A stretch of 64,000 nucleotides of DNA. It comes from an uncultured Candidatus Saccharibacteria bacterium. GTDB taxonomy: Bacteria > Patescibacteriota > Kazan-3B-28. Below, one piece after another: positions 39,185 to 56,113 of this stretch. A program made the position numbers and the translations under genes. The notes below the pieces were generated by a model, which ran no database searches, had not been told where the DNA came from, and saw nothing but the letters and a program-made list of their open reading frames with translations. Positions within the stretch are counted from its first letter, which is position 1. Every line of letters starts with the position of its first letter. The stretch is from assembly GCA_964434605.1 (NCBI GenBank), contig CAYSVM010000001.1, positions 54,011-118,010 of the forward strand, read 5' to 3'.

Positions 39185-39270
39185 AAATCAGCATTTTCCA
39201 TTATATCCCAATCTTCATTCTTTCTCCTCCTCTTGCTGGGCTCACCCTGATATCCGATACTATTAGAGAT

Positions 39271-42120: not shown

Positions 42121-42197
42121 ACCTCATTTTCCTTAAATTTCTGATACAATAAATAAGCAATATATTCGCATACTAATATTTTAAAAGGAGTTATCTT

Positions 42198-42533
42198 ATG
42201 AAAAATTGGCTTCGCGCAACAACAGCACTGGCCTCCTCCGCCATTTTTATGATCCGACCGGCTTTTGCCCAGAATGCACCTGTAATTGAACCGATACAAG
42301 GAGGTGGAATAGAGACCATTATCGATGCTATCCAGAATGTCATTAACTGGATGCTTATGATCGCTGGTGTTTTGGCAGTTGCCTACTTGGTTTATGCTGG
42401 CATTATGTACATTACTGCACCAGGAGGAAAAACTGATACAGCTAAGAACATGATTATCAATGCCATCGTTGGTATCGTCATCATCACGCTATCTTACGTT
42501 ATCGTAAACACCGCAATGAGCCTTATGGGCTAA
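42198..42533 (+). CDS. VirB2/TrbC-like T4SS pilin
   Basis: Signal peptide 'ALASSAIFMIRPAFAQ', then two TM helices separated by a short Gly/Lys loop, total 111 aa. This is the canonical VirB2 topology. A terminator follows. Confidence 0.6.
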   Translation: MKNWLRATTALASSAIFMIRPAFAQNAPVIEPIQGGGIETIIDAIQNVINWMLMIAGVLAVAYLVYAGIMYITAPGGKTDTAKNMIINAIVGIVIITLSYVIVNTAMSLMG

Positions 42534-42558
42534 ACACCCAATATCTACACATATAAAA

Positions 42559-42586
42559 GGCCGCCCTTCTCGGGCGGTCTTTCTTT
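42559..42586 (+). terminator. Rho-independent terminator after the pilin gene
   Basis: ggccgccc-ttctc-gggcggtc hairpin followed by tttcttt. Confidence 0.55.
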
Positions 42587-42675
42587 GGCGGAGGCGACAG
42601 GATTCGAACCTGTGAGGGGCCTAAGCCCCAACCGGTTTTCGAGACCAGCGCCATCAACCGCTCGGCCACGCCTCC
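42586..42675 (-). tRNA. tRNA-Ser (CGA)
   Basis: Reverse complement is GGAGGCGTGGCCGAGCGGTTGATGGCGCTGGTCTCGAAAACCGG...AGGTTCGAATCCTGTCGCCTCCGCCA. Long variable arm, anticodon loop cU-CGA-aa, CCA encoded. Confidence 0.85.
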
Positions 42676-42689
42676 GTATTCATTGTAAT

Positions 42690-43151
42690 CTACCTTTTCC
42701 GAAGATCTCGGAAAAATCCTTTCATCAACTCCGCTACCGTACCGTCATTCTTCATTCTCTGGCAATGCAATCTAGGAAAGAGCTTATTCAACTGCATCCT
42801 AGACATTTTGCTTTCTACTGAACCAAATGATGGATCGGCTAGCAAATAATAGACGTTTTTTACTCTTGCATTACCCAATGCACCTAGACACATCAAACAT
42901 GGCTCGAGTGTCACATACATACTCGCCCCTTCTATCCGCCAATCTCCAATCTTCTTTTGGGCTTGTCTTAAGGCAACCAATTCGGCATGCATCAATCCAT
43001 CCTTTTTTGTGTGGGTTTGGTTGAATCCTCGACCAATAACCTTACCTTTGGTGTCCACCATTACCGCACCAACAGGAACTTCTTTTTTCGCTAAAGCCTT
43101 CCGTGCTTCACGGATGGCTAGCTGAAAGTATTGCAGATGAGTATCCACCAT
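42690..43151 (-). CDS. tadA: tRNA-specific adenosine deaminase
   Basis: CDA-fold zinc motifs 'HAELVAL' and 'PCLMCLGAL'. 153 aa. Confidence 0.9.
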   Translation of the reverse strand: MVDTHLQYFQLAIREARKALAKKEVPVGAVMVDTKGKVIGRGFNQTHTKKDGLMHAELVALRQAQKKIGDWRIEGASMYVTLEPCLMCLGALGNARVKNVYYLLADPSFGSVESKMSRMQLNKLFPRLHCQRMKNDGTVAELMKGFFRDLRKR

Positions 43152-43163
43152 ATATATACCAGC

Positions 43164-43253
43164 TGGCGGAGAGGGCGGGATTCGAACCCGCGATACCCTT
43201 GCGGGTATAACACGTTAGCAGTGTGCCGCTTTCGACCACTCAGCCACCTCTCC
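43164..43253 (-). tRNA. tRNA-Ser (GCT)
   Basis: Reverse complement is GGAGAGGTGGCTGAGTGGTCGAAAGCGGCACACTGCTAACGTGTT...GCGGGTTCGAATCCCGCCCTCTCCGCCA. Long variable arm, anticodon loop cU-GCT-aa. One A:C mismatch in the anticodon stem as I folded it. CCA encoded. Confidence 0.75.
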
Positions 43254-43330
43254 TGGCGCGCCCGAAGGGAGTCGAACCCCCGACCTTCTGGTCCGTAGCC
43301 AGACGCTCTAATCCACTGAGCTACGGGCGC
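43254..43330 (-). tRNA. tRNA-Arg (ACG)
   Basis: Reverse complement is GCGCCCGTAGCTCAGTGGATTAGAGCGTCTGGCTACGGACCAGAAGGTCGGGGGTTCGACTCCCTTCGGGCGCGCCA. Anticodon loop cU-ACG-ga, CCA encoded. It is directly abutting tRNA-Ser(GCT). Confidence 0.85.
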
Positions 43331-43341
43331 ATCTTTTCTGG

Positions 43342-43815
43342 CTACAGTTTGAAGAATCGGCCAATCCTATCCACAGGATCTTCCCCCCGACTGGCATCTT
43401 CTGGCAAGAACTTTCCCAAAATTTCCCTTATCTTTTCCACATCCACGTCGCCTATTTGTAAAGTCAACAACAATCCGAACTTCCTATTTGGCAATATATT
43501 CACAACTCTCGCCTCTTGTCCCAACACAATCCAAAACAACTTCAGCTTACTATATGGGTATACCCTCCCACCAACCTCCACGCCCGTTTCCAGAATGCGA
43601 TGCCAAAAAGTTCTTGGTTGGATTCTCCGTAAAAGATATATCACCAATCCCACCATTACTACCACCACTAGTGTCACCCATTGCCCAACCCATGCTGTCC
43701 ATATTGCAGCTACTAGCAAGAATGCCAAAGTCCAGCCACTCCAGCCAGCCGTACTCCCCCCAGAAAACTCGGGGGCTTCCCACTCGTATAAGATTTTTTG
43801 ATCCTCTTGGTTCAT
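43342..43815 (-). CDS. Small membrane protein (hypothetical) nested between tRNA genes
   Basis: 157 aa with two TM helices 'WTLAFLLVAAIWTAWVGQWVTLVVVVMVGLVIYLL' and a soluble C-terminal domain. Other ORFs in this interval on the plus strand overlap tRNAs and are rejected. Confidence 0.5.
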   Translation of the reverse strand: MNQEDQKILYEWEAPEFSGGSTAGWSGWTLAFLLVAAIWTAWVGQWVTLVVVVMVGLVIYLLRRIQPRTFWHRILETGVEVGGRVYPYSKLKLFWIVLGQEARVVNILPNRKFGLLLTLQIGDVDVEKIREILGKFLPEDASRGEDPVDRIGRFFKL

Positions 43816-43835
43816 GTTGTCTATATTATACCTTC

Positions 43836-43925
43836 TGGCGGAGGCGACAGGATTCGAACCTGTGAAGAGCTTGCACCCTAACTAGTTTTCAAGACTAGCG
43901 CCATAAACCACTCGGCCACACCTCC
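43836..43925 (-). tRNA. tRNA-Ser (TGA)
   Basis: Reverse complement is GGAGGTGTGGCCGAGTGGTTTATGGCGCTAGTCTTGAAAACTAG...AGGTTCGAATCCTGTCGCCTCCGCCA. Long variable arm, anticodon loop cU-TGA-aa, CCA encoded. Confidence 0.85.
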
Positions 43926-43950
43926 TTTTCCAAAGAACACCTATTCTATC

Positions 43951-45996
43951 TTAAAACCCTATGTGTACAAAGTTCTTATAGGTAACCTTGTCTGTCTTTT
44001 CTCCTGATAAAACAGAAATCCCCGTTCCGCTAAAGATATCGTGCATTCCGTCTAATACGGCATATAGGCCCAATGGAGCAGAAGTTAGCGCTACGTCCAG
44101 ACCAATATCTTGCGCTCGACCGAGCCAGGAATCACTGGTATATACGAATATGGTAGCGGCCTTACTAAAAACCCCGTTATCTATAGGTAGATCCATAAAA
44201 TGCCAATCCTTTTCGTCTATTACACCATCTTTCCCCGTATTATCAAAACCCACTCCACCTTCAGCCACTGCCACCGCTCCATTCGGAAAAACATCTAAGT
44301 CAGCAACCCCGTTATCTAAATCATCTTCAGGACTGTAGACAATTATCTGTCTTACCATGAGATCTGAATTCCAATCATTTGGTGCTACTGCTAGTTCTGC
44401 TGGCATTCGCTCCAAGTCCAAAACCAATTGACGAATATTCTGCCGTGCTTCATATGCCTTCCATAAAGAACATTTGTTCTTCGTCGATCCTTGCCACCCC
44501 ACCATGTTTGCTACTTGCATCATTCGAAAAGTCATCTGCAATCCATCATGCAGAGTCTGCATCAATTCTTCGTCCTTCCATTCAAGCACCCTGCCACGAG
44601 TCTTTTCTCGAACTGCCTTCAACTTCTCCAGCGCATCTTCCGCATATACCACTGTTTGTGCATGAATCCCCGAGTCCAAACCTTGGGCGGACATAATCTT
44701 TAGATTGTTTATCATAATGTCCAGAGCACTCCCCACCTTCCCAAACCATGTTTCGGGATCATCGACAAGCGCTTCCATCTCATTTCTATACACCTCATTT
44801 TTATCTGCCTTTTTTGCAATACCAAACAAAGCCACACCGCCTTCGTAAGCTGTTTTGCTATCAACCTGCAACTGTTCGTAAATCGGTCTTATTATATCTT
44901 GACTCGCCACTTCCTGCCAACTTACTTTAACTGGAGCATTATTCCTCATATCCCCGTCATTATCCCTAAAACATGCCTTAGCCAGTCCATTGCTTATCCG
45001 CCCAATTTGGCTAATCCCCAATCCTTGTCCGGTTTCATATGCACTCTGCGCATCCAAGAGTTCTTCTGTTTGGTCCGCAAGCGCAATTCCCGCAATCTTT
45101 ACCGCCGCCTTTCGCCTTGTAGCAGAAGGACCATTACTAGTGCTAATTTTTATTCCAATTACTCCATCTCTTTTTTCCCATTTTTCTCCCAAATATTTTA
45201 GGGTTGTCATGATTCGCCAATCCAGATTCATTGTCATTCTCCCATCCACCTCTCTCCATTCAATATCTTTTTCTAATCCGTTTTCAAAGACCAATACTCC
45301 ACTATTTTTTAGCCTCATCACTTCTCCGGCCAAAACTTGGTGTTTGGGATCTTCATAGTCCATTTCTATTGGGAAAGAACCACCACCTTCATTGAAAGCT
45401 TTGTGTGCTACTCCACCGAATTGGAAAAATAAGGCTATTACGATAACAATTATTAAAGCAACTAGCACTATTATCCAAAAATATGGATTCGACATTAAAG
45501 CCTTCAGGGCTATCCCTGTCGTCCTCGCTGTCGCTGCTGCTTTTTCAGCTTGCTGCGCTCTCTTTTGAGCAAGACGAATTTTTTGTTGTACCTGTCTTAT
45601 TCTATTCGCAGCATCTTGGACATGTTCAGGCCCAGATTGTTCGCCTTTCTCTTTTCCATTTTTCTGCTGTTTTTTATTCTTCGGCTCTTCTTCCTCTTCT
45701 TCCGGTTCTTCCTCTGGTTCTTCCTCTGGTTCTTCTTCCGGTTCTTCATCTAGCTCTCTTTCGACATCATCCAGTTTATTTTGCACTTTGCGTTTCAGGT
45801 TTTCTGCTAAATCATCACTCCCCTCATCCCTGTACCTAGAGGCCTCCTCCCACTGCTTCCCAACTTCATCCAACACTTCTAGTAATCTATCCACAACTTT
45901 CTGAGACAAGTTCTTAGCCAAAAGCAAATCTTTGACTCGTTGTTGCAGGTGGGCAATTTTCTGTCTTAACGATTTTTCTTTTTCTTCTTCAGCCAT
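43951..45996 (-). CDS. Large bitopic membrane protein: N-terminal cytoplasmic coiled coil with acidic EPEEE repeats, one TM, large extracytoplasmic domain of about 480 aa (hypothetical)
   Basis: 681 aa. '(EPEEE)n' runs, TM 'YFWIIVLVALIIVIVIALFF', and no catalytic motifs recognised in the C-terminal domain. Confidence 0.55.
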   Translation of the reverse strand: MAEEEKEKSLRQKIAHLQQRVKDLLLAKNLSQKVVDRLLEVLDEVGKQWEEASRYRDEGSDDLAENLKRKVQNKLDDVERELDEEPEEEPEEEPEEEPEEEEEEPKNKKQQKNGKEKGEQSGPEHVQDAANRIRQVQQKIRLAQKRAQQAEKAAATARTTGIALKALMSNPYFWIIVLVALIIVIVIALFFQFGGVAHKAFNEGGGSFPIEMDYEDPKHQVLAGEVMRLKNSGVLVFENGLEKDIEWREVDGRMTMNLDWRIMTTLKYLGEKWEKRDGVIGIKISTSNGPSATRRKAAVKIAGIALADQTEELLDAQSAYETGQGLGISQIGRISNGLAKACFRDNDGDMRNNAPVKVSWQEVASQDIIRPIYEQLQVDSKTAYEGGVALFGIAKKADKNEVYRNEMEALVDDPETWFGKVGSALDIMINNLKIMSAQGLDSGIHAQTVVYAEDALEKLKAVREKTRGRVLEWKDEELMQTLHDGLQMTFRMMQVANMVGWQGSTKNKCSLWKAYEARQNIRQLVLDLERMPAELAVAPNDWNSDLMVRQIIVYSPEDDLDNGVADLDVFPNGAVAVAEGGVGFDNTGKDGVIDEKDWHFMDLPIDNGVFSKAATIFVYTSDSWLGRAQDIGLDVALTSAPLGLYAVLDGMHDIFSGTGISVLSGEKTDKVTYKNFVHIGF

Positions 45997-47454
45997 CTAG
46001 ATTTTCATTACAAAAATTCCTGTTGTTGTAGTCAACATTAGCATTTTCCCGATGGAACTGTATTCCATGGAGTTTATTTGCAAATTAGTTTCCTGCCCCA
46101 CAAATGGGATCATAGTCCTATCTCCGTTGTTTATATTTATTCTAATAAAAGTCTGATTTGGAGCTACTATTAAAATTTCGTCTGCACTCAACCAAGTGAT
46201 AGGTGTGCTTGTTGATGCCAACTCTCCTTTTTCAACTATCTCCGACTGAGCCGTTGCAAATTCATATGTTTTCAGTTGCATCTTCCCCTCTATCTCTACG
46301 ACATATGCGAGTTTCGCACCATCCGAAGAAATAGCATACTGACTTCCGGCAACTCTGTCCTGAACTATCTCGGAAATAGATTTCGCCACCAAGTCTACAA
46401 GCAACAATTTTCCCGCAGATTCTATAAGCAAATACCTATCATCTGCACCCCAGATCATTTTAGGGTTATCCAGTTGAGGCAAGTCAACAATTACTCGCTC
46501 CCACTCTTCTCCACTAGGAAGTGCCCGTACAAGAGAGTATTCCCCATCTGCAGTATCGTAGATATATAGTATCTCCGCCCCATCGTTGCTGTATGCCACC
46601 TGTCTAATACTTTCATTAAGCGCAACTGGCTGCCACCCACTAGATGTTTTTAGACTGTCATCAAAGAACCACGTACTAGTCCCTATATATTTAGAAGCTC
46701 CTTGGGTTGGCCGTTCTCCCAAAACAATATATCTCCCTCTAACCTGCCTATTATCTTGCATATTCTTGAGTTTCAGTTGGCCAGTAAGCTTCACTAACGC
46801 CGCTTGTGTCACCGGAGACCAAGTAATGTCACCCACCCCACTAAAACTTCCCCTAAAGAGAGAAGCAACCTTATTTTCCGTGGTACTCGAAGACTTAAAA
46901 CTACCATCTATTGGATCGTAATATGCGACTTCTAGCCCATTGCGATTCAACCGTGGATAAACAACATTGCCTTCTACCAATTTATCTATACTAGGTATAG
47001 GTAGAAGCCCTAGATTTAATAGGATCTTGTCGCCCCGAACAATCTCAATCGTCTTCTCAAGTTCCAGAAAACCATCTTTTGTTAAACCAAGAATATGCTT
47101 ACCTGCTTTAAGCTTTACAACATATCCTGTGTCGATCGTTCCATATGGTTTGTTATCAATTTTTAGCCCAACCGCTGCTTCATTTAGTTCAAAAGTCACT
47201 TCTCCCACATTGAATTTCAACCCCAAGAGCAAAAAGTAACCCGTCCCAAAGACCAGAATTGCAGCAAACAGACTAATCCCTATCGCCTGCCAATTAATTC
47301 GAGTCTGTTTTTTGGGAACACGGTTAGAAAAATTCAAATTTATACCCACTCCTTTAGTAGGAGCAGGTTTTCCTCTGCTCTGTCGTAATAATTCCGCTAA
47401 TTGTTGTTCTGGCGTTTTTTCGCCCCCAGACTGGCTAATTTGCTCATCTGCCAT
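45997..47454 (-). CDS. Membrane-anchored PEGA-like and beta-propeller (TolB-like) protein
   Basis: 485 aa with N-terminal TM 'IGISLFAAILVFGTGYFLLLGL', a PEGA-like beta-sandwich 'YVVKLKAGKHILGLTKDGF', and repeated 'SxDGxxLxYxxD' propeller blades. Confidence 0.55.
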   Translation of the reverse strand: MADEQISQSGGEKTPEQQLAELLRQSRGKPAPTKGVGINLNFSNRVPKKQTRINWQAIGISLFAAILVFGTGYFLLLGLKFNVGEVTFELNEAAVGLKIDNKPYGTIDTGYVVKLKAGKHILGLTKDGFLELEKTIEIVRGDKILLNLGLLPIPSIDKLVEGNVVYPRLNRNGLEVAYYDPIDGSFKSSSTTENKVASLFRGSFSGVGDITWSPVTQAALVKLTGQLKLKNMQDNRQVRGRYIVLGERPTQGASKYIGTSTWFFDDSLKTSSGWQPVALNESIRQVAYSNDGAEILYIYDTADGEYSLVRALPSGEEWERVIVDLPQLDNPKMIWGADDRYLLIESAGKLLLVDLVAKSISEIVQDRVAGSQYAISSDGAKLAYVVEIEGKMQLKTYEFATAQSEIVEKGELASTSTPITWLSADEILIVAPNQTFIRININNGDRTMIPFVGQETNLQINSMEYSSIGKMLMLTTTTGIFVMKI

Positions 47455-47550
47455 ACCAACCTACAACACTTTTTTGAGTATTTGTAAACCATGACTATTA
47501 TGCCATCTCGCCACTTCCCTTACTAGCCGTATTCCAATCCGTAATAGGGG

Positions 47551-47579
47551 TTGACAAAATACGATTTTTTTGATAAAAT
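47551..47579 (+). promoter_or_regulatory. Near-consensus sigma-70 promoter (extended -10) upstream of the VirB6-like gene
   Basis: TTGACA (47551-47556), a 17-nt spacer, then TG-n-TAAAAT (47571-47579). About 28 nt upstream of ATG 47608. The ORF track's TTG start at 47551 coincides with the -35 box and is unlikely to be a real start. Confidence 0.5.
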
Positions 47580-47607
47580 AAAGGTACAAAAATCAAAAAC
47601 AAAACCG

Positions 47608-50163
47608 ATGAAGCGCTTCATTAGTTTTATTACCTCTCTTAGAAATATCAAACGCCCACAACTTATCTTGGGTGGTCTTTTAGTAACCACAACTGTCATT
47701 ACAACCCTAATTGCTTCTCCCGCTTACGCATTCACCTTAAGTCCCGCAGCTGCTGCCGCAGGCATCCTAACAAATCTGTTCCTTTCTGTAGGCGAACTAA
47801 TCCAATGGGCATCTGTCCTGTTTCTTAGCCTGATTATCAATGTTATCTTACCCGGCCAGAACAGCCTTATCTTTGGAGAACAGGTATTTACTGCATGGAG
47901 AACCATGCTTGATCTTACTAACATCGTTTTCTTCCTAGCACTCTTTATCTTCGCTATTTTCATCATCACTCGTAATGCCGGCTACAACTTCAAAAAAGCT
48001 GTTATCGCACTTATTACCGCCATTGCCCTAGCCAATCTAAGTTTAGTTATCGTCCAATTACTAATTGAAATGGGTGATGCCTTACGAAATTTCAGTAGCC
48101 TTATCCCCGCCTTTGGAATGCAAGGAGGAGACACTACTCAACTGAGGGAGTGGCTACATGGACTGGTTTTGCCAAAAGACTTCAATCTTGAGGCTGCTTC
48201 TAAAGATGTTTGGGATATAGTATGGGTAGCTTTTCAAGTAATGGCCGCCCAAGCTATCATCGCCTACGTTCTATTCCGCCTAATGTTCGTACTAGTCGAA
48301 CGTGCTATCCGTTTGGCAATTTTAGCTATCTTTGGACCAATCCAAGCTGCAATTAGTGTTCTACCTCAAAAAGAACTCCAAGGACTAGGTAGCAACTGGT
48401 TCGGAGATGTTTTGCGCTGGGTTCTAGTTCTCCCCCTCTCCTTTATTCTTATCGGCATTGCCCGTCTAATCATGCCAACCAAAAGCGCTGCAACTCTTGA
48501 ATCATTTCTAAATCAAGCCCAAAAAGATGGAGGCACTCTAACTGGAACTGAAGAGCTGTTTCTTCTCATAATCGGCCTCGGAGTCCTTGTCGCTGCATCT
48601 TCTGTTCCAACAATGTTAAAGGTCCCAGTTTCTGCCCTCACCAACATGTTACCTAACTACGTAGGAAAAGCTGGCAAGGATTTAGGAAAAGCTGTTGGCA
48701 AAGGTATTTGGAATAATGTTAAGGCTAGGGGTAAACATATGGCCTTCAAGGTCGGAAGAAATATACCTGGCTATCGTTGGGTAGCCGGTAAAATTGCCGA
48801 TCGCAAACGAGAAGTCGACGCTCAAGCAAAACAACGCGCTTCCTTTGCCGACAAAGCCGCGCGCGACCGCGCTGTTAGTCGATACAACAAGAATAATCAA
48901 AGACTTGAAGGTAATATTAAAATCCAGCTCGAACAAGAACCCGGAGCCAAGCAACATGGTGGCTTTGATGCTTGGTTAGCCGCAGACCCAACAGCAGCCA
49001 AAGCTGCTAAAAACAGAATTAAAGATAGAGCCGAAAAGAGTGATCTCGGACTCGCCGTTGATGCAGACAACAAAGCATACATGGCCGCTATTATGGATGA
49101 GGTTGAGTCTGAATCCAAGAAAGACCGTAATGCAGGTGAACAAAAAGATGCTATCAATGAGCTAATTGAAAAAATTAAAAGCAACCCGAACGATAACGAC
49201 GCAAAAATGAAGCTATCAGCCATGCTTATACTCTTGAAACGCGAAACTAACAGAACGGGAGCTGGACGCAAGGACGCTATAGAAGCATTTGACGATGTAA
49301 TTGAGAAAAATAGCCTAGAAGACAAGGAAAAACGTTCCAAACTCGGTATCCATAACAAAGTAAATCTTAATCCGGTAGGAAAAAGCAAAAAAACCTCTGG
49401 TGTAGATGACGCAGAAAAAGATATAAACCATATGGCCAAAGTCCAAGTGGAACTTAAAGGCCTAGAAGAACTCAAAGAAGCTTTTAAAAACGGATTGTCT
49501 TTACCAAATAAACTGATGGACTTTCAGATGACAAACTTCAAAGATTCCAAAAAACAAGAACGAGTCGACGCTATTCTTGACAGCCCTCACGCAACCCAAG
49601 AAGAAAAAGCTGGAGTGGTAGCTAAGACGCTGGAGATAGGAAGGGAGCTTGCCCAGGCCATCGTGGGTGCAAATCTTCGTGGAGACGATTTGGGTAGAAT
49701 GTCTGATCAAAACGCCCTCGGCACTTCTTTGGAGGATTTCCTCAAAACCACTGTTGATGGTCGCATACAATCTAAGCGATCTGAACTTAATAACATCAGG
49801 GAAACTGTCGCTACAAAAAGCGCCGCTCAACCAGGAATGAAAGTAATTAAAGACACTGTTGCCAGCCTTGATCCTTCTGATATCAGCGAGCTTAGTAATA
49901 ACCTTAAAGAACTTGGAGACATTATCTCCTTAGTTCTTGCCCAAGGACACAGTGATACCGCGGTAAATGAATTGCCTCAGATTAACCAAGATCAAATTGG
50001 AGAACTTATAAATAAAATAGAAAACGGACTTAAACTCCCAGGCGGAACTCTTAGTAACAATGGGGAGAACGCACTAAATAGGTTAAACCAGACTTCAATT
50101 GGTATATATAAAATTCTCCGCGACCAGAGCGGTACATACACTGATCTTCGTGATGCAATATAA
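47608..50163 (+). CDS. VirB6/TrbL-like polytopic T4SS channel protein with a long hydrophilic C-terminal extension
   Basis: N-terminal 330 aa or so with at least 6 TM helices in a TrbL/VirB6-like arrangement, then about 520 aa of charged, Lys/Asp/Glu-rich soluble domain. Confidence 0.65.
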   Translation: MKRFISFITSLRNIKRPQLILGGLLVTTTVITTLIASPAYAFTLSPAAAAAGILTNLFLSVGELIQWASVLFLSLIINVILPGQNSLIFGEQVFTAWRTMLDLTNIVFFLALFIFAIFIITRNAGYNFKKAVIALITAIALANLSLVIVQLLIEMGDALRNFSSLIPAFGMQGGDTTQLREWLHGLVLPKDFNLEAASKDVWDIVWVAFQVMAAQAIIAYVLFRLMFVLVERAIRLAILAIFGPIQAAISVLPQKELQGLGSNWFGDVLRWVLVLPLSFILIGIARLIMPTKSAATLESFLNQAQKDGGTLTGTEELFLLIIGLGVLVAASSVPTMLKVPVSALTNMLPNYVGKAGKDLGKAVGKGIWNNVKARGKHMAFKVGRNIPGYRWVAGKIADRKREVDAQAKQRASFADKAARDRAVSRYNKNNQRLEGNIKIQLEQEPGAKQHGGFDAWLAADPTAAKAAKNRIKDRAEKSDLGLAVDADNKAYMAAIMDEVESESKKDRNAGEQKDAINELIEKIKSNPNDNDAKMKLSAMLILLKRETNRTGAGRKDAIEAFDDVIEKNSLEDKEKRSKLGIHNKVNLNPVGKSKKTSGVDDAEKDINHMAKVQVELKGLEELKEAFKNGLSLPNKLMDFQMTNFKDSKKQERVDAILDSPHATQEEKAGVVAKTLEIGRELAQAIVGANLRGDDLGRMSDQNALGTSLEDFLKTTVDGRIQSKRSELNNIRETVATKSAAQPGMKVIKDTVASLDPSDISELSNNLKELGDIISLVLAQGHSDTAVNELPQINQDQIGELINKIENGLKLPGGTLSNNGENALNRLNQTSIGIYKILRDQSGTYTDLRDAI

Positions 50164-50173
50164 CTAAAATAAT

Positions 50174-50710
50174 ATGGCAGTAAAAATCCCACAAGATGTT
50201 ACCCGTGAAGATAAGCTGATTGGTCCGCTTACCTTAAAGCAGTTCCTTTATTTACTTGCCGGTAGCTCAATCATCTTCATCACCTACCAATCCACTATGA
50301 GCTGGCTCTTATTTATCGTTGTCAGCCTCATCGTAGGTATCCTGTCCCTCTTACTTGCATTCGGAAAGATCAACGGCCGTCCCTTTGGTGTATTCCTGCT
50401 AAACCTACTTCACTTTATTCGTTCATCCAAGAATTTGGTTTGGCACAAAGAACATCGAGCTAAAGTAAAGAACATAAAAGTAAGTGCTTCGGATATCAAA
50501 GACACAAAAACAGAACTTGCAGATCGTCAGTCTGGAAAACAAATCAAAATGCAGATCGAACAGCTCGCCCATATCCTAGATACGGGTGGTACAATGAACA
50601 GTGAACAAACAGAATTTACTGCTACATCAATCAGCACTATTACTCCCCCAAAAACCACAGTCGAACCTACCGACATCGAAGATGTACTTAAAGATGTTGA
50701 CCAATCCTAA
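50174..50710 (+). CDS. VirB3/PrgI-like small membrane protein
   Basis: 'DKLIGPLTLKQFLYLLAGSSIIF' followed by a second TM. This matches the PrgI/VirB3 family pattern, and it sits immediately upstream of VirB4. Confidence 0.55.
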   Translation: MAVKIPQDVTREDKLIGPLTLKQFLYLLAGSSIIFITYQSTMSWLLFIVVSLIVGILSLLLAFGKINGRPFGVFLLNLLHFIRSSKNLVWHKEHRAKVKNIKVSASDIKDTKTELADRQSGKQIKMQIEQLAHILDTGGTMNSEQTEFTATSISTITPPKTTVEPTDIEDVLKDVDQS

Positions 50711-50716
50711 ACCAAT

Positions 50717-51394
50717 ATGGCACGCAAACAACCAAAATTCAAAAGTACCCAACAGTTCCTTCCTGTCCAAGAAATTAGGGATGGGATAGTGGTCTTAAAA
50801 GGCGGTGGATACCGTACAGTGCTAATGGTCAACGCCATTAACTTCAGCCTGAAATCAGCAGACGAACAACAGGCCTTACTAAACAGCTACCAGAACTTTC
50901 TCAATGGTCTTTCTTTCCCTATCCAAATCGTGATGCAATCTCGCACACTCGACCTAACCAACTACCTAACCAGCCTCGAACAAGCAGCTAGTAAGCAGAC
51001 TAACGACTTGCTTCGTACCCAAACAAACGAATACACCACTTTTGTTCGCGATCTTGTTGGGGTTGCCAACATCATGAGCAAAACCTTTTACGTAATCGTC
51101 CCCCACAACGAGATGCCCCTACTTACCGGTGGATTCCACCTATTTGGAAAAAAGAAAAGCTCTCCTAGCCGTCAGTTTGAGGAAATAAAAACTGCTATGA
51201 GCGAAAAAACCAACCTCATCTCAAGCGGACTAGCTAGTCTAGGATTAAACAATGTTCAACTAAATACCCAAGAGCTAATCGAGCTTTTCTATACCAGCTA
51301 CAACAGTGATTCTGCTCGTCGGCAAAAGCTCTTTTCCGTAAGCAATGTCGATGCTTCTATTATCCGTAACGTAAAAGATGCGGAGGCCCAATAA
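50717..51394 (+). CDS. Stand-alone VirB4 N-terminal-domain-like protein
   Basis: 225 aa. 'FLPVQEIRDGIVVLKGGGYRTVLMVNAINFSLKSADEQQALLNSYQNFLNGLSFPIQIVMQSR' resembles the N-terminal region of VirB4/TraE-type ATPases. Its stop overlaps the next ATG (TAATG). Confidence 0.5.
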   Translation: MARKQPKFKSTQQFLPVQEIRDGIVVLKGGGYRTVLMVNAINFSLKSADEQQALLNSYQNFLNGLSFPIQIVMQSRTLDLTNYLTSLEQAASKQTNDLLRTQTNEYTTFVRDLVGVANIMSKTFYVIVPHNEMPLLTGGFHLFGKKKSSPSRQFEEIKTAMSEKTNLISSGLASLGLNNVQLNTQELIELFYTSYNSDSARRQKLFSVSNVDASIIRNVKDAEAQ

Positions 51395-53184
51395 TGTTCG
51401 GAAGAAAAAAGAAAATTCAGACTGCCGAAGAACAAGCTGCTAAGAAAGCGGCGGAGAGTTTTGAAAGCGGTCTTGTTTCTGTCCGCGACCTTATCGCCCC
51501 TACTGCCATGGAGATCAAAAACGACCGTCTACTTCTAAACGGCAAGTTTGTCCGCAGTTTCTTCGTGTTAACCTACCCTCAATATATCGAGACCAATTGG
51601 CTCGCTCCCCTAATAAACTACGACGTCAATATAGATATTTCAATGCACATCTATCCCGTAGACAACGCAAACATTATGCGTGTCTTGCGTCGGAAAGTAA
51701 GCGAAATGGAATCGTCTCTTCGCATCAACGAGGAAAAAGGAGCCATCCGCGATCCTGAACTGGAGATTGCCTATAACGATGCCGAGGAGTTACGCGATCG
51801 CCTCCAAAGAGGTATCGAAAAGTTCTTCCACTACGCCCTATACTTCACCATCTATGCCTCCAGCGAAGAAAAGTTAGACAGCGTAACCAGCCATATTGAA
51901 ACGACCCTTGGTGGCCAACTGGTTTACACCAAACAGGCACTGCTGCAAATGGAACAAGGATTTAATTCTAGCCTTCCTCTTGGTCTAGACGAACTAAATG
52001 TTGTCCGAAACATGACCACATCTTCAGTAGGGACCACTTTCCCCTTCACCTCAGTCGATCTCACTACTGGAAAAGGTGTCCTGTATGGTATCAACCGACA
52101 CAACAATTCCCTCATCCTCTTCGATCGATTCGAGTTAGAAAACGCCAACATGGTAGTCTTTGCCAAATCTGGTGGTGGTAAATCCTATGCCATTAAACTA
52201 GAGGTTCTCCGTAGCATGATGTTCGATACTGATGTTATCGTTATCGATCCCGAGAACGAATACAAAGCTTTAGCAGATGCTGTTGGAGGCAGTTACATTT
52301 CAGTGAGTTTGAATAGTGAAAAACGAATTAATCCATTTGACTTACCCAACCTTGGCACCAATGCTGATGGGGAAAAAGTTCTCCGCGCTTCCGTTATTAC
52401 CCTCATGGGCTTAATGAACCTAATGCTTGGCAAACTCACTCCAGAAGAAGAGGCTCTAATGGAAAAAGCGCTAATGGAAACCTACGCCTTGAAGGACATT
52501 ACTGGAGATATCAAGACCCACCAGAATCCTGCCCCAACAATGCAAGACCTATACAACGTTTTGGGAAATATGACTGGTGCAGAAAGCCTGGCCTTGCGTC
52601 TAACCAAATACACCACAGGAACCTTTGCCGGTGTCTTTAACCAACCGACAAACTTTGAATTAGATCGCGGTCTAATGGTCTTTTCTATCCGTGACTTGGA
52701 AGACACTCTCCGACCAATCGCTATGTATGTTGTCCTAAACTACATTTGGAACAAGATTCGTTTCAATATGAAGAAGCGAATGCTGGTAATAGACGAAGCT
52801 TGGATTCTTATGCAGTACGAAGACTCTGCCAAATTCCTTTACTCCATCGCCAAACGTGCCCGTAAATATTACCTCGGACTCACCACAATCACCCAGGATA
52901 TCGAAGACTTCTTGGGCTCCAAGTACGGCAAAGCAGTTGTGGCAAACTCTTCGCTACAGTTACTTCTGCGCCAATCCCCCGCCTCTATCGACATAGTTGC
53001 AGAAACCTTCAACCTTACCCAAGGAGAAAAATTCCTTCTACTTGAATCAAATGTTGGTGAAGGTCTATTCTTCGCTGGTACCAACCATGCTGCCATCAAA
53101 GTGGTTGCCAGCTACATTGAAGACCGTATTGTTACTTCGGATCCCAGTCAGCTAGCAGAACTTCGTAACCTCACAGGAGGTTAA
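51394..53184 (+). CDS. virB4: Type IV secretion ATPase VirB4 (CagE/TrbE/TraE family)
   Basis: N-terminal 'LLLNGKFVRSFFVLTYPQYIETNWLAPLIN...DISMHIYPV', Walker A 'VVFAKSGGGKSY', and Walker B 'MLVIDEAW'. 596 aa. Confidence 0.85.
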   Translation: MFGRKKKIQTAEEQAAKKAAESFESGLVSVRDLIAPTAMEIKNDRLLLNGKFVRSFFVLTYPQYIETNWLAPLINYDVNIDISMHIYPVDNANIMRVLRRKVSEMESSLRINEEKGAIRDPELEIAYNDAEELRDRLQRGIEKFFHYALYFTIYASSEEKLDSVTSHIETTLGGQLVYTKQALLQMEQGFNSSLPLGLDELNVVRNMTTSSVGTTFPFTSVDLTTGKGVLYGINRHNNSLILFDRFELENANMVVFAKSGGGKSYAIKLEVLRSMMFDTDVIVIDPENEYKALADAVGGSYISVSLNSEKRINPFDLPNLGTNADGEKVLRASVITLMGLMNLMLGKLTPEEEALMEKALMETYALKDITGDIKTHQNPAPTMQDLYNVLGNMTGAESLALRLTKYTTGTFAGVFNQPTNFELDRGLMVFSIRDLEDTLRPIAMYVVLNYIWNKIRFNMKKRMLVIDEAWILMQYEDSAKFLYSIAKRARKYYLGLTTITQDIEDFLGSKYGKAVVANSSLQLLLRQSPASIDIVAETFNLTQGEKFLLLESNVGEGLFFAGTNHAAIKVVASYIEDRIVTSDPSQLAELRNLTGG

Positions 53185-53186
53185 TT

Positions 53187-54458
53187 ATGCGTCCTGTAAG
53201 CGTAATTGGTGTTGTCTTTTGGGGAACAGTTGGAATCCTAACACTCATCGCAGTACTGACTGTTACTTTTACAAGAGAAACTACGGGAATCGAGGAGCGT
53301 TGGGGAAGCCGAACAGCAGAAGAGCGCCAAACAGACCTACTCGACCCCATCTCCATTTTAGCCAAGAATAAAAACTACCAATCAAACGTTAGTGGCAACA
53401 AAAGCATTCGTCCAACCGGTTCGTCTGATCACGACAACGACGGCCTTACCAATGATATAGAAATCTCCCTAGGAATTGACCCTGCCAATCCCGACACAGA
53501 CGGAGATGGAGTATTAGATGGTATCGAAAAGGAACTTGGAACAAATCCCAACGATCCAAAAGAAGGTGGACTTGCTCCGGTACCCCAAACCACAACGCCA
53601 ACCTCTACCCCAAACCAACTTGTTATCACCCGCCTCTCCAAGACAGCCATCGTTGGTGGTCGGCCAGTGCACTTCGTCACTCTTCCCGTAGGAAGTACTA
53701 TTCAATTCCGTATTCGAGCAGAAGCAACAAATTTGGGTGGAAGCCACACCTTAGTACTTGAAGACAAAATTCCCAACTCTTTCCATGACTTTACCGGAAC
53801 CATTCAGGTGAATAATTCACCAACCTCAAAAATAACCAAAAATTCGCTTAGTCGATATGTAATTAGAGTTAGCCCTAATACCCAAACAGTTGTTGTAGAA
53901 ATCAACTTCTCAGTTACTGCCACCGCCGTTGGCAATTGGGAAAATATCGCCAACATCTACAAGCCAAACGAGTTAGACGGCCTGTCCGACAAGGTGTATC
54001 TCCGCATTACTAATCCAAAAAGTTACACCACCCAGCCTCCAGCCAGCTGCACCATCTGTAATCTCTTCTTACTCGGTCGTGCCAACAAAGATGAAGCATG
54101 GGGCACTAGAATATTTGCCGAAACAAATACCCAACTAGACTTCTATATCTCCATTGAAACATCAAATCTTGAAAGCGAAACCAAAACTTTTTCCATAAAA
54201 GACGTACTCCCCTCCGGACTCAAATACGTCCCTGGCAGTGGCAAAGTTTTTTACGATAACCGCTCCACTCCCAAACAGCTCCCCGATACCTGGATAACAG
54301 ACTACAATCTCACCACTACGCATAAAACCAACCGATTTGAGCTCTACTTTTCTGCTACAGTAGAAACAGACGCTCCCTTCGCTCTAACCAACAATACTGA
54401 GGTAGTTAGTTGGGATGGCAAATCTTATCAATCTAGCGTAAAAGTAAACTCCAAATAA
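53187..54458 (+). CDS. Secreted/surface protein with thrombospondin-type-3-like Ca-binding repeats and a DUF11-like repeat domain
   Basis: N-terminal TM or signal sequence, then 'DHDNDGLTNDIEISLGIDPANPDTDGDGVLDG' (DxDxDG repeats), then beta-rich repeats. SD 'ggagg' sits 7 nt upstream. Translationally coupled to virB4. Confidence 0.55.
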   Translation: MRPVSVIGVVFWGTVGILTLIAVLTVTFTRETTGIEERWGSRTAEERQTDLLDPISILAKNKNYQSNVSGNKSIRPTGSSDHDNDGLTNDIEISLGIDPANPDTDGDGVLDGIEKELGTNPNDPKEGGLAPVPQTTTPTSTPNQLVITRLSKTAIVGGRPVHFVTLPVGSTIQFRIRAEATNLGGSHTLVLEDKIPNSFHDFTGTIQVNNSPTSKITKNSLSRYVIRVSPNTQTVVVEINFSVTATAVGNWENIANIYKPNELDGLSDKVYLRITNPKSYTTQPPASCTICNLFLLGRANKDEAWGTRIFAETNTQLDFYISIETSNLESETKTFSIKDVLPSGLKYVPGSGKVFYDNRSTPKQLPDTWITDYNLTTTHKTNRFELYFSATVETDAPFALTNNTEVVSWDGKSYQSSVKVNSK

Positions 54459-54460
54459 CC

Positions 54461-56113
54461 ATGACCAACCAAGCCCCTCATCCCCAGAACGAAGACGATG
54501 CCCCAATGGAGCAGTTTGTAACCACCCTCCAACGAAGGAAGGAAGAAGAATATACCCAGAAAAAAGCATCTGAACTAAACCTCACTTACCAAAACTTGGT
54601 TGGCTTCCAACCCAACCCATCTGCTGTCAGTATTGTCCCCAAAGACCTTGCCCATTCCGCCAATATCTTTGCATATGAAAAAGACGGAACCGTTATTTCC
54701 CTTGCGCTTTCAAATCCCGAAGATCCCACGACCATAGACGCCCTAAAGAAGCTTTCTGCACTAGATGAATTTGAATTCAAACCAGTATTAGTCTCTTCTT
54801 CTTCAATGAAATACCTACTAGGAATCTATGACACCTTTTCTCCTACTCAAACTAAAGTCGATGATATAAATATCGATACCAAGCTACAAGAAAAGTTTTC
54901 CAAACTAACTAATCTAAAAGAGCTTCAAACAGCTCTCACTACCGCCTCAACCAGCGAACTAACTGAAACTATCTTTGCTGGTGCTATTGGTTTAAATGCT
55001 TCCGACATTCATATCGAGCCCACCAAAGAAGGTGTTCGTCTACGCTTCCGACTCGATGGCGTCCTCCATGATATTACCGAGCTTCCCTTGGACCGGTTAG
55101 ATACTCTAACCAACCGTATCAAAATGCTATCCCAACTGAAACTCAACCTCACTGAAACCGCCCAAGATGGACGTTTCTCTATCCACACCCCCAAAGGAAC
55201 CTATGATATCCGTGTCTCAATCCTTCCCACCCAATACGGAGAATCTGCTGTTCTACGTCTACTTCCCCAAGAAGGAAGTTTTATTAACTTGGATAAGATT
55301 GGTTTTTCTCCCGAAGTAAAACAATGGGTAGACTCAGCCATTCACGAACCCAACGGCCTTATCCTAAACACCGGTCCCACTGGTTCCGGTAAGACCACCA
55401 CCCTTTATGCAATCCTGAATACCATCAATAAGCCAGATTCAAAAATCATTACCGTAGAAGATCCTGTAGAATACCGTCTTGAAGGAATTACCCAAACCCA
55501 AGTCAATGTAGAAGAAGACTATACTTTTGCCAACGCTCTTCGTTCTATCGTCCGCCAAGACCCAGACATTATTTTAGTTGGAGAAATTCGTGACAAAGAA
55601 ACTGCCAACATTGCAGTAGACGCCGCACTGACTGGACACCTTGTCCTCTCCACCCTACACACCAATGACGCTGCCGGTGCTGTTCCCCGGCTAGTAGAAC
55701 TTGGTGCCCAACCAAAGCTATTCTCCGACGCTCTTCGTCTTATTATCGCCCAGAGGTTGGTTCGTCGTCTTTGCCCTAAATGCAAAGAAGCATACTCACC
55801 CAAAGGCGCGGAGTTAGAAAAAATAAAATCCATCTCCCCTTCCACTCTCCCCAAAACTATCTACCGTCCCAAAGGATGCGATGCCTGCAATGGAACGGGG
55901 TACCATGGCCGTATCGGCATCTTCGAAGTGTTACGAATCACTCCAGAGATAAAAGAAGCTATCAATGAAGGCAAGGGTGCAGCTGAACTCGCCCAACTAG
56001 CTATTTCCCAAGGAATGATTACACTCGCCCAAGATGGACTAGCTCGAGTAATTGAAGACACAACCTCTCTAGATGAATTGCTTCGGGTTGTCGGAGGAAA
56101 CAAAACCAACTAA
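54461..56113 (+). CDS. GspE/PilB-type secretion ATPase (type II/IV secretion, type IV pilus assembly family)
   Basis: GSPII_E_N-like N-domain, Walker A 'GPTGSGKTTTLYA', Asp box 'VEDPVEY', Walker B 'ILVGEIRD', His box 'LSTLHTNDA', and C-terminal tetracysteine 'CPKC...CDACNGTG'. Confidence 0.9.
   Translation: MTNQAPHPQNEDDAPMEQFVTTLQRRKEEEYTQKKASELNLTYQNLVGFQPNPSAVSIVPKDLAHSANIFAYEKDGTVISLALSNPEDPTTIDALKKLSALDEFEFKPVLVSSSSMKYLLGIYDTFSPTQTKVDDINIDTKLQEKFSKLTNLKELQTALTTASTSELTETIFAGAIGLNASDIHIEPTKEGVRLRFRLDGVLHDITELPLDRLDTLTNRIKMLSQLKLNLTETAQDGRFSIHTPKGTYDIRVSILPTQYGESAVLRLLPQEGSFINLDKIGFSPEVKQWVDSAIHEPNGLILNTGPTGSGKTTTLYAILNTINKPDSKIITVEDPVEYRLEGITQTQVNVEEDYTFANALRSIVRQDPDIILVGEIRDKETANIAVDAALTGHLVLSTLHTNDAAGAVPRLVELGAQPKLFSDALRLIIAQRLVRRLCPKCKEAYSPKGAELEKIKSISPSTLPKTIYRPKGCDACNGTGYHGRIGIFEVLRITPEIKEAINEGKGAAELAQLAISQGMITLAQDGLARVIEDTTSLDELLRVVGGNKTN

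Follow-up and report, generated by a model that had tools for sequence, protein, structure and literature searches.

The open reading frame at 47608..50163 of the window, which is the whole stretch of 64,000 nucleotides that we analysed, encodes the VirB6 subunit (TrbL/PrgH class) of a chromosomal, monoderm-type T4SS in a Patescibacteria bacterium, as judged from profile, fold and gene context. Behind its membrane domain the protein carries a long tail, the last ~262 residues of which have been replaced between genomes that are ~88% identical. As the best overall explanation we propose a T4SS VirB6 protein with a probably cytoplasmic tail and a swappable distal module, an account to which we give about an even chance of being correct.

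The VirB6-like protein and its locus

The ORF is real and not spurious: it runs unbroken for 851 aa from an ATG at 47608 to the stop codon at 50161-50163, and public assemblies contain an identical called protein (P0001). Since all homologues are 850-1110 aa long, a fusion artefact does not account for the long tail. The gene is the first of an operon encoding the VirB6-like, PrgI/VirB3, TrsD and VirB4 proteins; a terminator-like site was looked for between it and prgI, and none was seen. The locus comprises the following elements.

41887-42120 and 42198-42533, forward strand: two VirB2/TrbC-type pilin genes (77 and 111 aa; Pfam)
43951..47454, reverse strand: divergent pair encoding a 681-aa membrane protein and a 485-aa PEGA/beta-propeller-like protein (family matches, synteny)
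47551..47579, forward strand: sigma-70-like promoter of the VirB6-like operon (TTGACA, 17 nt, TAAAAT, TG-extended -10; 11/12 matches)
47608..50163, forward strand: VirB6-like CDS, 851 aa (ORF call and identity to the public called protein)
47608..47730, forward strand: signal-peptide-like N-terminus, residues 1-41 (5 K/R, hydrophobic 19-37, A-x-A (AYA) at 39-41)
47731..48618, forward strand: TrbL/VirB6-superfamily membrane domain, residues 42-337 (profile, fold, TM analysis)
50174..50710, forward strand: PrgI/VirB3-like protein, 178 aa (PF12666, E 1e-9)
50717..51394, forward strand: TrsD-like protein, 225 aa, like the N-terminal part of VirB4 (NF045975, 4.8e-12; TrsD NF041427, 4e-4; PMC12102498)
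51394..53184, forward strand: VirB4-family ATPase of the CD1110 type, 596 aa (NCBIfam/Pfam match, 2.9e-117)
53187..56113, forward strand: TSP3-repeat/isopeptide-domain-like protein (423 aa) and PilB/GspE-type ATPase (550 aa; family matches)

The gene cluster is kept across 19 related loci, which stem from Kazan, Saccharibacteria and unclassified Patescibacteria MAGs. The divergent pair accompanies the VirB6-like gene in nearly all of them, and in related genomes the genes for the TSP3-type protein and the PilB/GspE-type ATPase share synteny with the cluster. The TrsD-like gene and virB4 overlap by 1 nt. The pilin genes lie ~5 kb upstream of the VirB6-like gene; the 111-aa pilin matches PF18895 (1.2e-8) and PF04956 (1.4e-7), the 77-aa pilin more weakly and under the curated cut-off. 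No relaxase or coupling-protein genes were found among the window ORFs scanned. Two 90-bp cross-matches, near 42.6 and 43.8 kb, were considered as repeats and turned out to be tRNA-Ser genes.

Because the query gives no match in Pfam, NCBIfam or the PDB sequences, its assignment to VirB6 needs the evidence of profile, fold and context. It stays below the gathering threshold of Pfam PF04610, and only one of its 17 close homologues reaches TrbL (E 0.0014); family and PDB sequence searches with the query and with profiles A1 and A4 returned coiled-coil noise only, and a tblastn search of plasmids with the N-domain gave no match. A profile of the N-domain retrieved 15,500 cluster representatives, nearly all of 600-1500 aa and with the domain near the N-terminus. 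Among the 112 relatives found by this profile at E <= 1e-20 and scanned against Pfam (60 + 52), TrbL is matched by 25 (16/60 and 9/52), and TrbL_4 (two) and DUF7263 (one, marginal) are the only other families matched. Two sequences, P0092 (31.3 bits) and P0102 (27.7 bits), exceed the TrbL gathering score of 25.9. Furthermore, a Foldseek search of the AlphaFold model against 350,542 PDB chains ranks three chains of R388 TrwI/VirB6 (7o3v_G, 7o3v_F and 8rtd_L) at the top and DotA fourth; the leading match (probability 1.0, TMt 0.49, 285 aligned columns, E only 0.023) is weak but specific. The 153-sequence family profile aligns P244 and W264 with P179 and W197 of A. tumefaciens VirB6 (E 7.5e-5 in a one-target search), a score equalled by 1/1000 block-shuffled controls; hhalign of a 17-sequence profile with VirB6 is not significant.

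Residues 1-337 consist of a signal-peptide-like segment and 6-8 further hydrophobic helices, five of which are robust as TM helices (64-82, 103-121, 131-153, 271-289 and 317-337) and three marginal (41-59, 212-230 and 234-252). Most of the 17 homologues likewise have an A-x-A-like site, and the signal peptide is probably cleaved. Invariant in the membrane domain are YNFKK (126-130), R232, P244, P253, W264, W271 and P276. The protein thus resembles canonical VirB6/TrbL (A. tumefaciens VirB6, R388 TrwI) in its hydrophobic multi-helix domain, which yields the best PDB fold matches, in the alignment of the signature Pro...Trp loop region, and in being encoded beside virB3, virB4 and virB2-type pilins. 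It differs in its signal-peptide-like start with extra N-terminal helices, in its extension of 514 aa compared with a C-terminus of about 35 residues, and in its monoderm host; genes for VirB5, VirB7, VirB9 or VirB10 were not found in the window. The label TrbL/VirB6-like given in a preliminary description is therefore borne out by gene order, profile relatives, fold and the alignment with A. tumefaciens VirB6, though not by any direct Pfam or NCBIfam match; the polytopic part, described there as the N-terminal third, makes up 40% of the protein.

Tail architecture and replacement of the distal module

The tail, residues 338-851, contains no hydrophobic segment and is divided into three parts.

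48619..48759, forward strand: basic Gly/Lys-rich juxtamembrane linker, residues 338-384 (low model confidence)
48760..49374, forward strand: conserved proximal all-alpha tail domain, residues 385-589 (pLDDT 73-92, net basic)
49375..50160, forward strand: variable distal tail module, residues 590-851 (helical, net acidic, mostly low-confidence model)

Charged residues account for 31% of the tail (K 11.1, D 8.1, E 6.9%), compared with 11.6% of the N-domain, and 76% of it is helical in the AlphaFold2 model, in agreement with the earlier description of more than 500 K/D/E-rich, mostly helical residues. The description as coiled-coil-rich is not supported: only two windows of ~30 residues pass a crude heptad scan, and residues 385-589 form one all-helical domain, in which a single 54-aa helix (389-442) is followed by eight shorter ones. 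The other helices of the tail measure about 5-30 residues in the AlphaFold2 models. Two AlphaFold2 runs agree in that 385-589 is confident and helical and that most of the distal part, except for a short stretch near 644-685, has pLDDT < 50; residues 591-641 form a low-confidence linker. The proximal domain ends in a conserved G..xK(V/F) motif (G580, K584), and the 50 aa preceding it carry a net charge of +4 to +9 in 15 near-full-length proximal matches and of +3 in the truncated match of P0032. Across the clade the charge polarity of the tail, basic proximally and acidic distally, is kept, as are several distal motifs.

Family and structure searches found no known fold or family for the tail, and Pfam detects no repeat family in it. 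The possibility of a VirB5 fused to VirB6, with a TraC/CagL/TrwJ fold in the proximal domain, was rejected, the structure search having shown no VirB5-like fold. The tails of 153 relatives show no further TM segments, no sortase motifs and no informative domains, and the 112 relatives scanned hold no secreted-type domain. The tail profiles recognise only 16 of the 153 family representatives; the tail family is restricted to a small sub-clade.

The nearest genome (L002) is collinear with the window at ~88% nucleotide identity, and a metagenome scan gave no closer relative. Nucleotide identity to it amounts to 87.8% up to 49373 and 87.4% from 50173, with no similarity at 49374-50172; that is, similarity ends at residue ~589 and resumes 10 nt past the stop codon. 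Within the distal DNA the identity of 51.5% equals that of a shuffled control (51.2 +/- 1.4%), compared with 85% in the proximal region, and the proximal domain is 81-83% identical to that of P0002 with a dN/dS of 0.21. Hence, the distal module has undergone mosaic replacement between close relatives. The query's distal module matches only that of P0006 (E 4e-18), a protein whose N-domain is 48% identical to the query's, and the distal module of P0002 matches that of P0004 (51%). In P0003 similarity drops elsewhere, directly after the N-domain. Silent cassettes for gene conversion were found neither in the window nor in related loci, and the distal DNA shows no compositional anomaly, its GC of 0.39-0.45 being like that of the flanks.

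The VirB6-like gene is the least conserved in the eight-gene conserved cluster: VirB4 keeps an identity of 94-98% in comparisons in which the distal tail cannot be aligned, and the immediately downstream prgI is 93% identical. The expectation that the tail evolves fast is thus confirmed.

Side of the membrane on which the tail lies

The tail most likely lies on the cytoplasmic face, a placement to which we give an even or slightly better than even chance, because the extension starts at the point where the short cytoplasmic C-terminus of canonical VirB6 would be. The Trp loop of VirB6 is cytoplasmic in the A. tumefaciens topology, and so is the C-terminus of VirB6 in A. tumefaciens, Brucella and ComB6 (PMC7648143). 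Between W264 and the tail there are exactly two robust TM helices (271-289, 317-337), so that the equivalence of W264 with W197 of this cytoplasmic loop puts the C-terminus inside. Charge across the last TM helix leads to the same side: in the 153 family representatives the 60 residues past it contain on average 8.5 K+R and 2.9 D+E, compared with 1.4 K+R and 3.0 D+E before it, and in the query 12-14 K/R stand just past the last hydrophobic helix, preceded by an acidic loop. This difference in charge argues for a C-terminal flank inside. The composition score of the tail (+0.048) also groups it with cytoplasmic proteins of the same genome, which range from +0.011 to +0.094 (leave-one-out; TrsD alone lies outside, at -0.012), as against -0.052 to -0.002 for the secreted set, yet the K/E/A-rich composition may reflect helicity and not compartment.

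The preliminary description saw in the tail the extracellular, host-contacting part of the apparatus, and we consider this doubtful: the protein's own signals, namely the Trp-loop anchor, the basic flank and the composition, favour the cytoplasm, but hypervariability and the Anaplasma tails keep an outside location alive. In such an arrangement, to which we attach a clear minority of our confidence, the proximal domain would be a pilus-base collar or span the wall, replacing VirB5/VirB8/VirB10-type parts that have no counterpart in the monoderm system, and the distal part would be surface-exposed, in contact with the host bacterium or under phage or host pressure. VirB8 homologues are indeed scarce in Patescibacteria (PMC12102498). 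Conservation near the membrane with a hypervariable tip is typical of surface fibrils, and the VirB6-like gene, the fastest-evolving member of its cluster, outpaces in most loci even that of the putative surface protein TSP3. Such extreme variability, a near absence of Cys from the tails (0.05%) and the Pro/Thr-rich ends of a few homologues are more typical of exposed proteins.

Topology, too, can be read in this direction. TM parity over the whole domain hinges on the three marginal helices, and AlphaFold draws 201-249 as one helix; with the resulting six helices after the signal peptide the C-terminus would be outside. The R388 structure solved by cryo-EM shows just alpha1 and alpha2 of VirB6 embedded in the membrane and the remaining hydrophobic helices as a dome in the periplasm (PMC9259494); should the protein studied here be arranged likewise, the positive-inside argument would no longer apply and its tail would begin outside. 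The C-termini of Anaplasma extended VirB6 proteins (VirB6-3/4) are trypsin-accessible and surface exposed (PMC7648143), and the divergent C-terminal region of ConG is predicted to be extracellular (bioRxiv 10.1101/2021.01.25.428195). Against an outside tail stand, besides the basic flank, the W264 anchor and the cytoplasm-like composition, the lack of a VirB5-like fold and more than 110 tails in which no beta-rich, adhesin-like, wall-binding or sortase features were found. The earlier description had also held that a cytoplasmic and strongly conserved tail would point to a structural role; we find the cytoplasm favoured and the tail strongly variable.

Relation to known systems and possible role

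With at least five hydrophobic helices and a large hydrophilic C-proximal domain, which define 'extended VirB6' (PMC12857230), the protein is a new variant of this known class. It shares with Anaplasma VirB6-3/-4 (Rickettsiales extended VirB6) a TrbL domain followed by a large hydrophilic C-terminal extension. In Anaplasma, the T4SS genes that differ from strain to strain are virB6 and virB2, and most of their variation falls at the 3' end (PMC7648143). Those tails, however, are tandem-repeat rich, far longer, trypsin-accessible and from diderm bacteria, whereas the query tail is helical, has no Pfam-detected repeat family and carries topogenic signals of its own that point to the cytoplasm. 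Closer in lineage is Southlakia epibionticum SEML1_0013 (an essential gene; at least 1085 aa), which belongs to the same phylum-level chromosomal MPF-FATA-like cluster with PrgI, TrsD, VirB4 and pilins (PMC10633639, PMC12102498) and has helical domains past its membrane part, a likeness of layout. Compared with the Patescibacteria T4SS VirB6 homologues at large, the query stands apart through its narrowly distributed tail family. VirB6 tails and their variability were not analysed in PMC10633639, PMC12102498 or PMC12857230.

The entry-exclusion targets F TraG, SXT TraG and ICEBs1 ConG are VirB6-like proteins whose partner specificity is set by a short divergent stretch, reported on either membrane side (bioRxiv 10.1101/2021.01.25.428195). 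ConG is like the query in having a divergent C-terminal region. In contrast to these proteins, the variable unit of the query is a ~260-aa module and not a few residues, we identified no exclusion gene, and conjugation is not a known function of the system. A monoderm counterpart is the VirB6-like TcpH of pCW3 (832 aa), in which a K/N/E-rich tail of ~400 aa, basic at its juxtamembrane start, comes after a polytopic N-terminal part; its tail is of low complexity, unlike the folded helical domain of the query, and the family profile gives no match to TcpH (E 0.1-1), which excludes it as a detectable sequence relative. The TcpH tail is reportedly cytoplasmic.

For the VirB6 protein with a probably cytoplasmic tail, we envisage the following arrangement. 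By analogy with R388 TrwI and pCF10 PrgH, residues 42-337 would form oligomers in the membrane over PrgI/VirB3, TrsD and VirB4, and the N-domain would serve as a platform that recruits and polymerises the VirB2-type pilins of the locus. R388 VirB6 is presumed to be a pilin-assembly platform (PMC9259494), and from this structure and bioRxiv 10.64898/2025.12.18.695078 we infer that the VirB2-recruiting platform may be pentameric. The basic Gly/Lys linker would hug the membrane, and the conserved basic helical domain 385-589 could be a structural adaptor beside the ATPase complex. The acidic distal module 590-851 is swapped from lineage to lineage through recombination at the edge of the domain and might set partner specificity, through cargo or adaptor docking or through exclusion-like recognition. 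We tentatively suggest, at a level well below that of the overall account, that this ~260-residue module works as an interchangeable cassette for specificity in an essential epibiont T4SS, re-assorted among lineages at the proximal/distal boundary and choosing the partner, be it cargo or adaptor inside or a host or sibling cell outside.

It is improbable that the distal tail is a weakly constrained helical spacer without specific function, whose divergence would result from relaxed selection and occasional recombination. The low AlphaFold confidence over most of 590-851, the lack of a known fold or family and the narrow reach of the tail profiles fit a spacer. Neighbouring genes, though, have a dS of about 0.3-0.9, and neutral drift cannot explain DNA at shuffled-control level with a sharp edge at the domain boundary; moreover, distal length stays within 263-353 aa among the eight closest homologues, helicity is predicted throughout, and several motifs and the acidic charge persist in the clade. 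Even less probable is an effector-like payload fused to a channel subunit and cleaved, released or translocated, an idea put forward for the extended VirB6 of Rickettsiales: a conserved N-terminal part for delivery joined to an exchangeable C-terminal module resembles polymorphic effector/toxin logic, linker 591-641 might be a cleavage site and Anaplasma has been suggested to release its tails into the target cell (PMC7648143), but family and fold searches found no toxin or enzyme domain, the window holds no silent cassettes, and no immunity or partner gene co-varies with the swap. A polymorphic toxin with an immunity gene was likewise rejected, given the conserved prgI and the return of similarity directly behind the stop codon.

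In summary, the VirB6 tail is the fastest-evolving, modular and recombining part of an otherwise highly conserved machine. In the single species examined, epibiotic growth requires Patescibacteria T4SS genes, that of the VirB6 homologue among them (PMC10633639), and according to a recent review it is not known what the extra domains of extended VirB6 proteins do (PMC12857230). If the distal tail is only a structural spacer, the finding shrinks to one more extended VirB6. What is new is the wholesale replacement of the distal half between close relatives, which may set T4SS specificity; if the module is indeed a specificity cassette, it would be a large-module counterpart of the short TraG/ConG regions read by exclusion proteins. 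The distal tail thereby offers a concrete swappable element for host range, cargo choice or self/non-self discrimination.

VirB6L and its secretion locus

The gene follows the preliminary description, from the ATG at 47608 to the stop codon at 50161-50163 (851 codons), and the same 851-aa protein is called on a public contig (P0001). No terminator-like site was found between it and the next gene. The features of the locus are as follows.

27385-29727 and 56847-58973 (-): two class-I aminoacyl-tRNA synthetase genes, Leu/Ile/Val/Met group
41887-42533: two tandem VirB2/TrbC-type pilin genes (77 and 111 aa), 5 kb upstream of the T4SS core
42586-43925 (-): cluster of tRNA-Ser(cga), tRNA-Ser(gct), tRNA-Arg(acg) and tRNA-Ser(tga)
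43951-47454 (-): 681-aa membrane protein (mem681) and 485-aa PEGA/beta-propeller-like protein (PEGA485)
47551-47579: sigma-70-type promoter with extended -10 (11/12 matches)
47608-50163 (+): VirB6L
50174-50710: PrgI/VirB3 protein, downstream of VirB6L
50717-51394: TrsD-like protein, 225 aa, resembling the N-terminal part of VirB4
51394-53184: VirB4 ATPase, CD1110-type, 596 aa
53187-56113: TSP3-repeat/isopeptide-domain-like protein, then a PilB/GspE-type ATPase with MshEN domain

By hydropathy, the VirB6L N-terminus resembles a signal peptide, with five K/R, a hydrophobic stretch at 19-37 and A-Y-A at 39-41 (an A-x-A-like site occurs in most of 17 homologues), followed by more hydrophobic helices up to residue 337. 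The earlier assignment as VirB6-like lacks a direct match of the query (none in Pfam, NCBIfam or PDB sequences), but the indirect evidence is consistent with it. A profile of the N-domain (residues 42-337) retrieved 15,500 cluster representatives at E <= 1e-3 among 1.84 billion, and nearly all of the best 150 matches are 600-1500 aa long with the domain near the N-terminus. A scan of 112 of these relatives found 25 with a match to Pfam TrbL/VirB6 (best 8e-10), two of them above the gathering score; the only other Pfam matches are TrbL_4 (2) and one marginal DUF7263. The relatives' TrbL domain maps onto query residues ~110-335, so that the TrbL domain ends with the last hydrophobic helix of VirB6L. 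The AlphaFold2 model, with pLDDT mostly 70-89 over residues 50-340 (56-68 over ~160-210 and ~290-320), finds R388 TrwI/VirB6 chains as its best three Foldseek PDB matches, then DotA. In hhalign, a 17-sequence profile of close homologues gave no significant match to A. tumefaciens VirB6, its sole alignment pairing P244/W264 with P179/W197; a profile of 153 family representatives gave the same alignment at E 7.5e-5 in a single-target search, and 1 of 1000 block-shuffled controls scored as high. Altogether, VirB6L is very probably a divergent member of the VirB6/TrbL superfamily.

The block comprising mem681, PEGA485, VirB6L, PrgI, TrsD, VirB4, TSP3-like and PilB genes, the first two on the minus strand, is conserved across the related loci retrieved, which stem from MAGs of Patescibacteria with the labels Kazan, Saccharibacteria or unclassified. 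Two genes make up VirB4 (50717-53184), one for a TrsD-like protein matching the N-terminal part of VirB4 models and one for an ATPase, with a one-base overlap between the ATPase ATG and the TrsD stop, an arrangement reported for Patescibacteria (PMC12102498). The mem681/PEGA485 pair, divergent from the VirB6L gene, accompanies it in almost all of 19 related loci (31-93% identity), and the two proteins, without confident family assignment, are candidate parts of the apparatus. The TSP3-like and PilB/GspE ATPase genes remain syntenic with the T4SS genes in a number of related genomes, suggesting that the two machineries are functionally linked. The window ORFs scanned included no gene for a relaxase or a coupling protein. 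The locus agrees with the published Patescibacteria T4SS, which is MPF-FATA-like, comprises TrsD, PrgI, VirB6 and pilins and usually lacks a relaxase (PMC12102498). Such a system is essential in Southlakia epibionticum (PMC10633639), where no coupling protein is recognisable, and Patescibacteria T4SS loci are generally without relaxase (PMC12102498, PMC10633639). In kind, VirB6L is ordinary: the extended VirB6 of an already described Patescibacteria T4SS.

The tRNA cluster and a TadA-like deaminase gene lie between the pilin genes and the T4SS core; the tRNA-Ser genes account for 90-bp cross-matches in DNA comparisons, which are not repeats of a mobile element. The remaining window genes are chromosomal housekeeping genes (RpoD, DnaG, DnaE, Clp ATPase, aminoacyl-tRNA synthetases, Mur ligase, TsaD), and the LeuRS editing domain is full in the 27385-29727 synthetase, with only a short match in the 56847-58973 one.

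Replacement of the distal tail segment

No hydrophobic segment was found in VirB6L residues 338-851, of which 31% are charged (K 11.1, D 8.1, E 6.9%); the AlphaFold2 model has 76% of them in helices. Calling this tail coiled-coil-rich proved an overstatement, as only two windows of ~30 residues pass a crude heptad test; in the models, the longest helix has 54 residues (389-442) and the others about 5-30. Two AlphaFold2 runs, of the full length with 17 sequences and of the tail only with 9, concur on three parts.

Residues 338-384: basic Gly/Lys-rich linker, low confidence
Residues 385-589: proximal all-alpha domain, pLDDT 73-92, closed by a conserved G..xK(V/F) motif
Residues 590-851: distal part, helical, mostly pLDDT < 50

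A long tail is a general feature of the family (median 539 aa), and the essential VirB6-like Southlakia SEML1_0013 likewise carries ~640 residues of helical domains past its membrane part. Of the 153 representatives, only 16 are recognised by a profile of the proximal part and only 16 by one of the distal part; this tail is thus clade-specific, and its fold has no known counterpart. Charge polarity is kept across the clade, the linker ranging from +4 to +9 in 15 near-full-length proximal matches and the proximal domain from +1 to +10, with a mostly negative distal part. GC skew stays below zero in nearly all 2-kb bins of the window (1-64000; about -0.13 to -0.33), regardless of gene orientation; it is about 0 in the first bin (1-2000) and also in the tail region, there because of purine-rich K/E/D codons.

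Our main new result is the replacement of the distal segment. Over 37608-49373 the window is collinear, at 87.8% nucleotide identity, with its nearest genome (L002, GCA_022703745.1); similarity is undetectable over 49374-50172 and returns (87.4%) at 50173, ten bases past the VirB6L stop codon. VirB6L is 83% identical over residues 1-590 and unalignable over 591-851, while orthologous neighbours are 83-98% identical (most 88-98%; 83% in the fast-evolving TSP3-like protein, dN/dS 0.13). In global alignment, the proximal tail DNA reaches 85% identity and the distal DNA 51.5%, versus 51.2 +/- 1.4% for a codon-shuffled control. With distal DNA at the control level and synonymous divergence of neighbouring genes only 0.3-0.9, drift cannot account for the pattern, hence the segment was replaced. 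The breakpoint falls where the folded proximal domain ends.

Relationships of the distal modules are discordant: that of the query has its sole match (31% over 218 aa, E 4e-18) in P0006, a homologue with only 48% N-domain identity to the query, and those of homologues P0002 and P0004 compare at 51%. A second junction appears against homologue P0003, where identity drops from about 80% to about 40% right after the N-domain. The P0003 contig (L021) also hints at further recombination tracts around the gene: its VirB6L N-domain is 80% identical in amino acids versus 67-70% for flanking proteins, neighbouring genes are only 68-73% identical to the window in DNA, and identity rises to 93% over the initial 61 nt of prgI (L021 6559-6619 versus window 50173-50233). 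Even the alignable parts of VirB6L are the fastest-evolving in the locus (dN/dS 0.18-0.21 versus 0.012-0.154 in neighbours), and in related locus L005 VirB4 is 94% identical versus 45% for the VirB6L N-domain. Neither the window nor the related loci contain silent cassettes, the distal DNA shows no anomaly of composition, and no neighbouring gene co-varies with the distal module.

Membrane side and proposed role of the tail

On balance, we lean towards a cytoplasmic tail. In A. tumefaciens, the conserved VirB6 Trp lies in a cytoplasmic loop between TMD3 and TMD4, and the C-termini of canonical VirB6 (A. tumefaciens, Brucella, ComB6) are cytoplasmic (PMC7648143). In favour of the same location here, W264 aligns with this Trp, exactly two robust TM helices (271-289, 317-337) separate it from the tail, and the 60 residues after the last helix hold 8.5 K+R versus 2.9 D+E across the 153 representatives. 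The loop before that helix holds 1.4 versus 3.0 in the same set, and one topology, with the tail inside, satisfies the positive-inside rule in every loop. A composition log-odds score, with 14 cytoplasmic and 5 secreted proteins of the window as training set, separated the two groups at zero in leave-one-out except for TrsD (-0.012); the tail scores +0.048, within the cytoplasmic range.

A surface-exposed tail is the less probable reading, though a realistic one. AlphaFold draws residues 201-249 as a single helix, which gives C-out parity, three VirB6L helices are energetically marginal, and the R388 structure shows VirB6 embedded in the membrane by alpha1 and alpha2 alone, with the other hydrophobic helices forming a periplasmic dome (PMC9259494). 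[quoted passage not shown] Other traits typical of exposed proteins are hypervariability combined with conservation next to the membrane, an almost complete lack of Cys and, in a few homologues, ends rich in Pro and Thr. The host-contacting role first proposed for the tail fits this hypervariability; however, VirB6L's own topogenic signals point the other way. Further rival explanations take the tail to be cleaved or translocated, or to be a functionless spacer.

By homology, the N-domain would be a membrane platform that works with PrgI/VirB3, TrsD and VirB4 in the extraction and polymerisation of VirB2-type pilins (PMC9259494; bioRxiv 10.64898/2025.12.18.695078). We propose that the tail is an extension of the C-terminus that canonical VirB6 has in the cytoplasm: its basic linker would run along the membrane, the conserved basic proximal domain may be an adaptor, and the acidic, recombining distal module could serve variable partner recognition. 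VirB6-family proteins are targets read by exclusion proteins, with specificity regions reported on either membrane side (bioRxiv 10.1101/2021.01.25.428195). Module replacement in VirB6L is moderately interesting and offers a clear experimental handle; with so sharp a replacement, VirB6L varies more than any other element of a machine that is conserved and probably essential.
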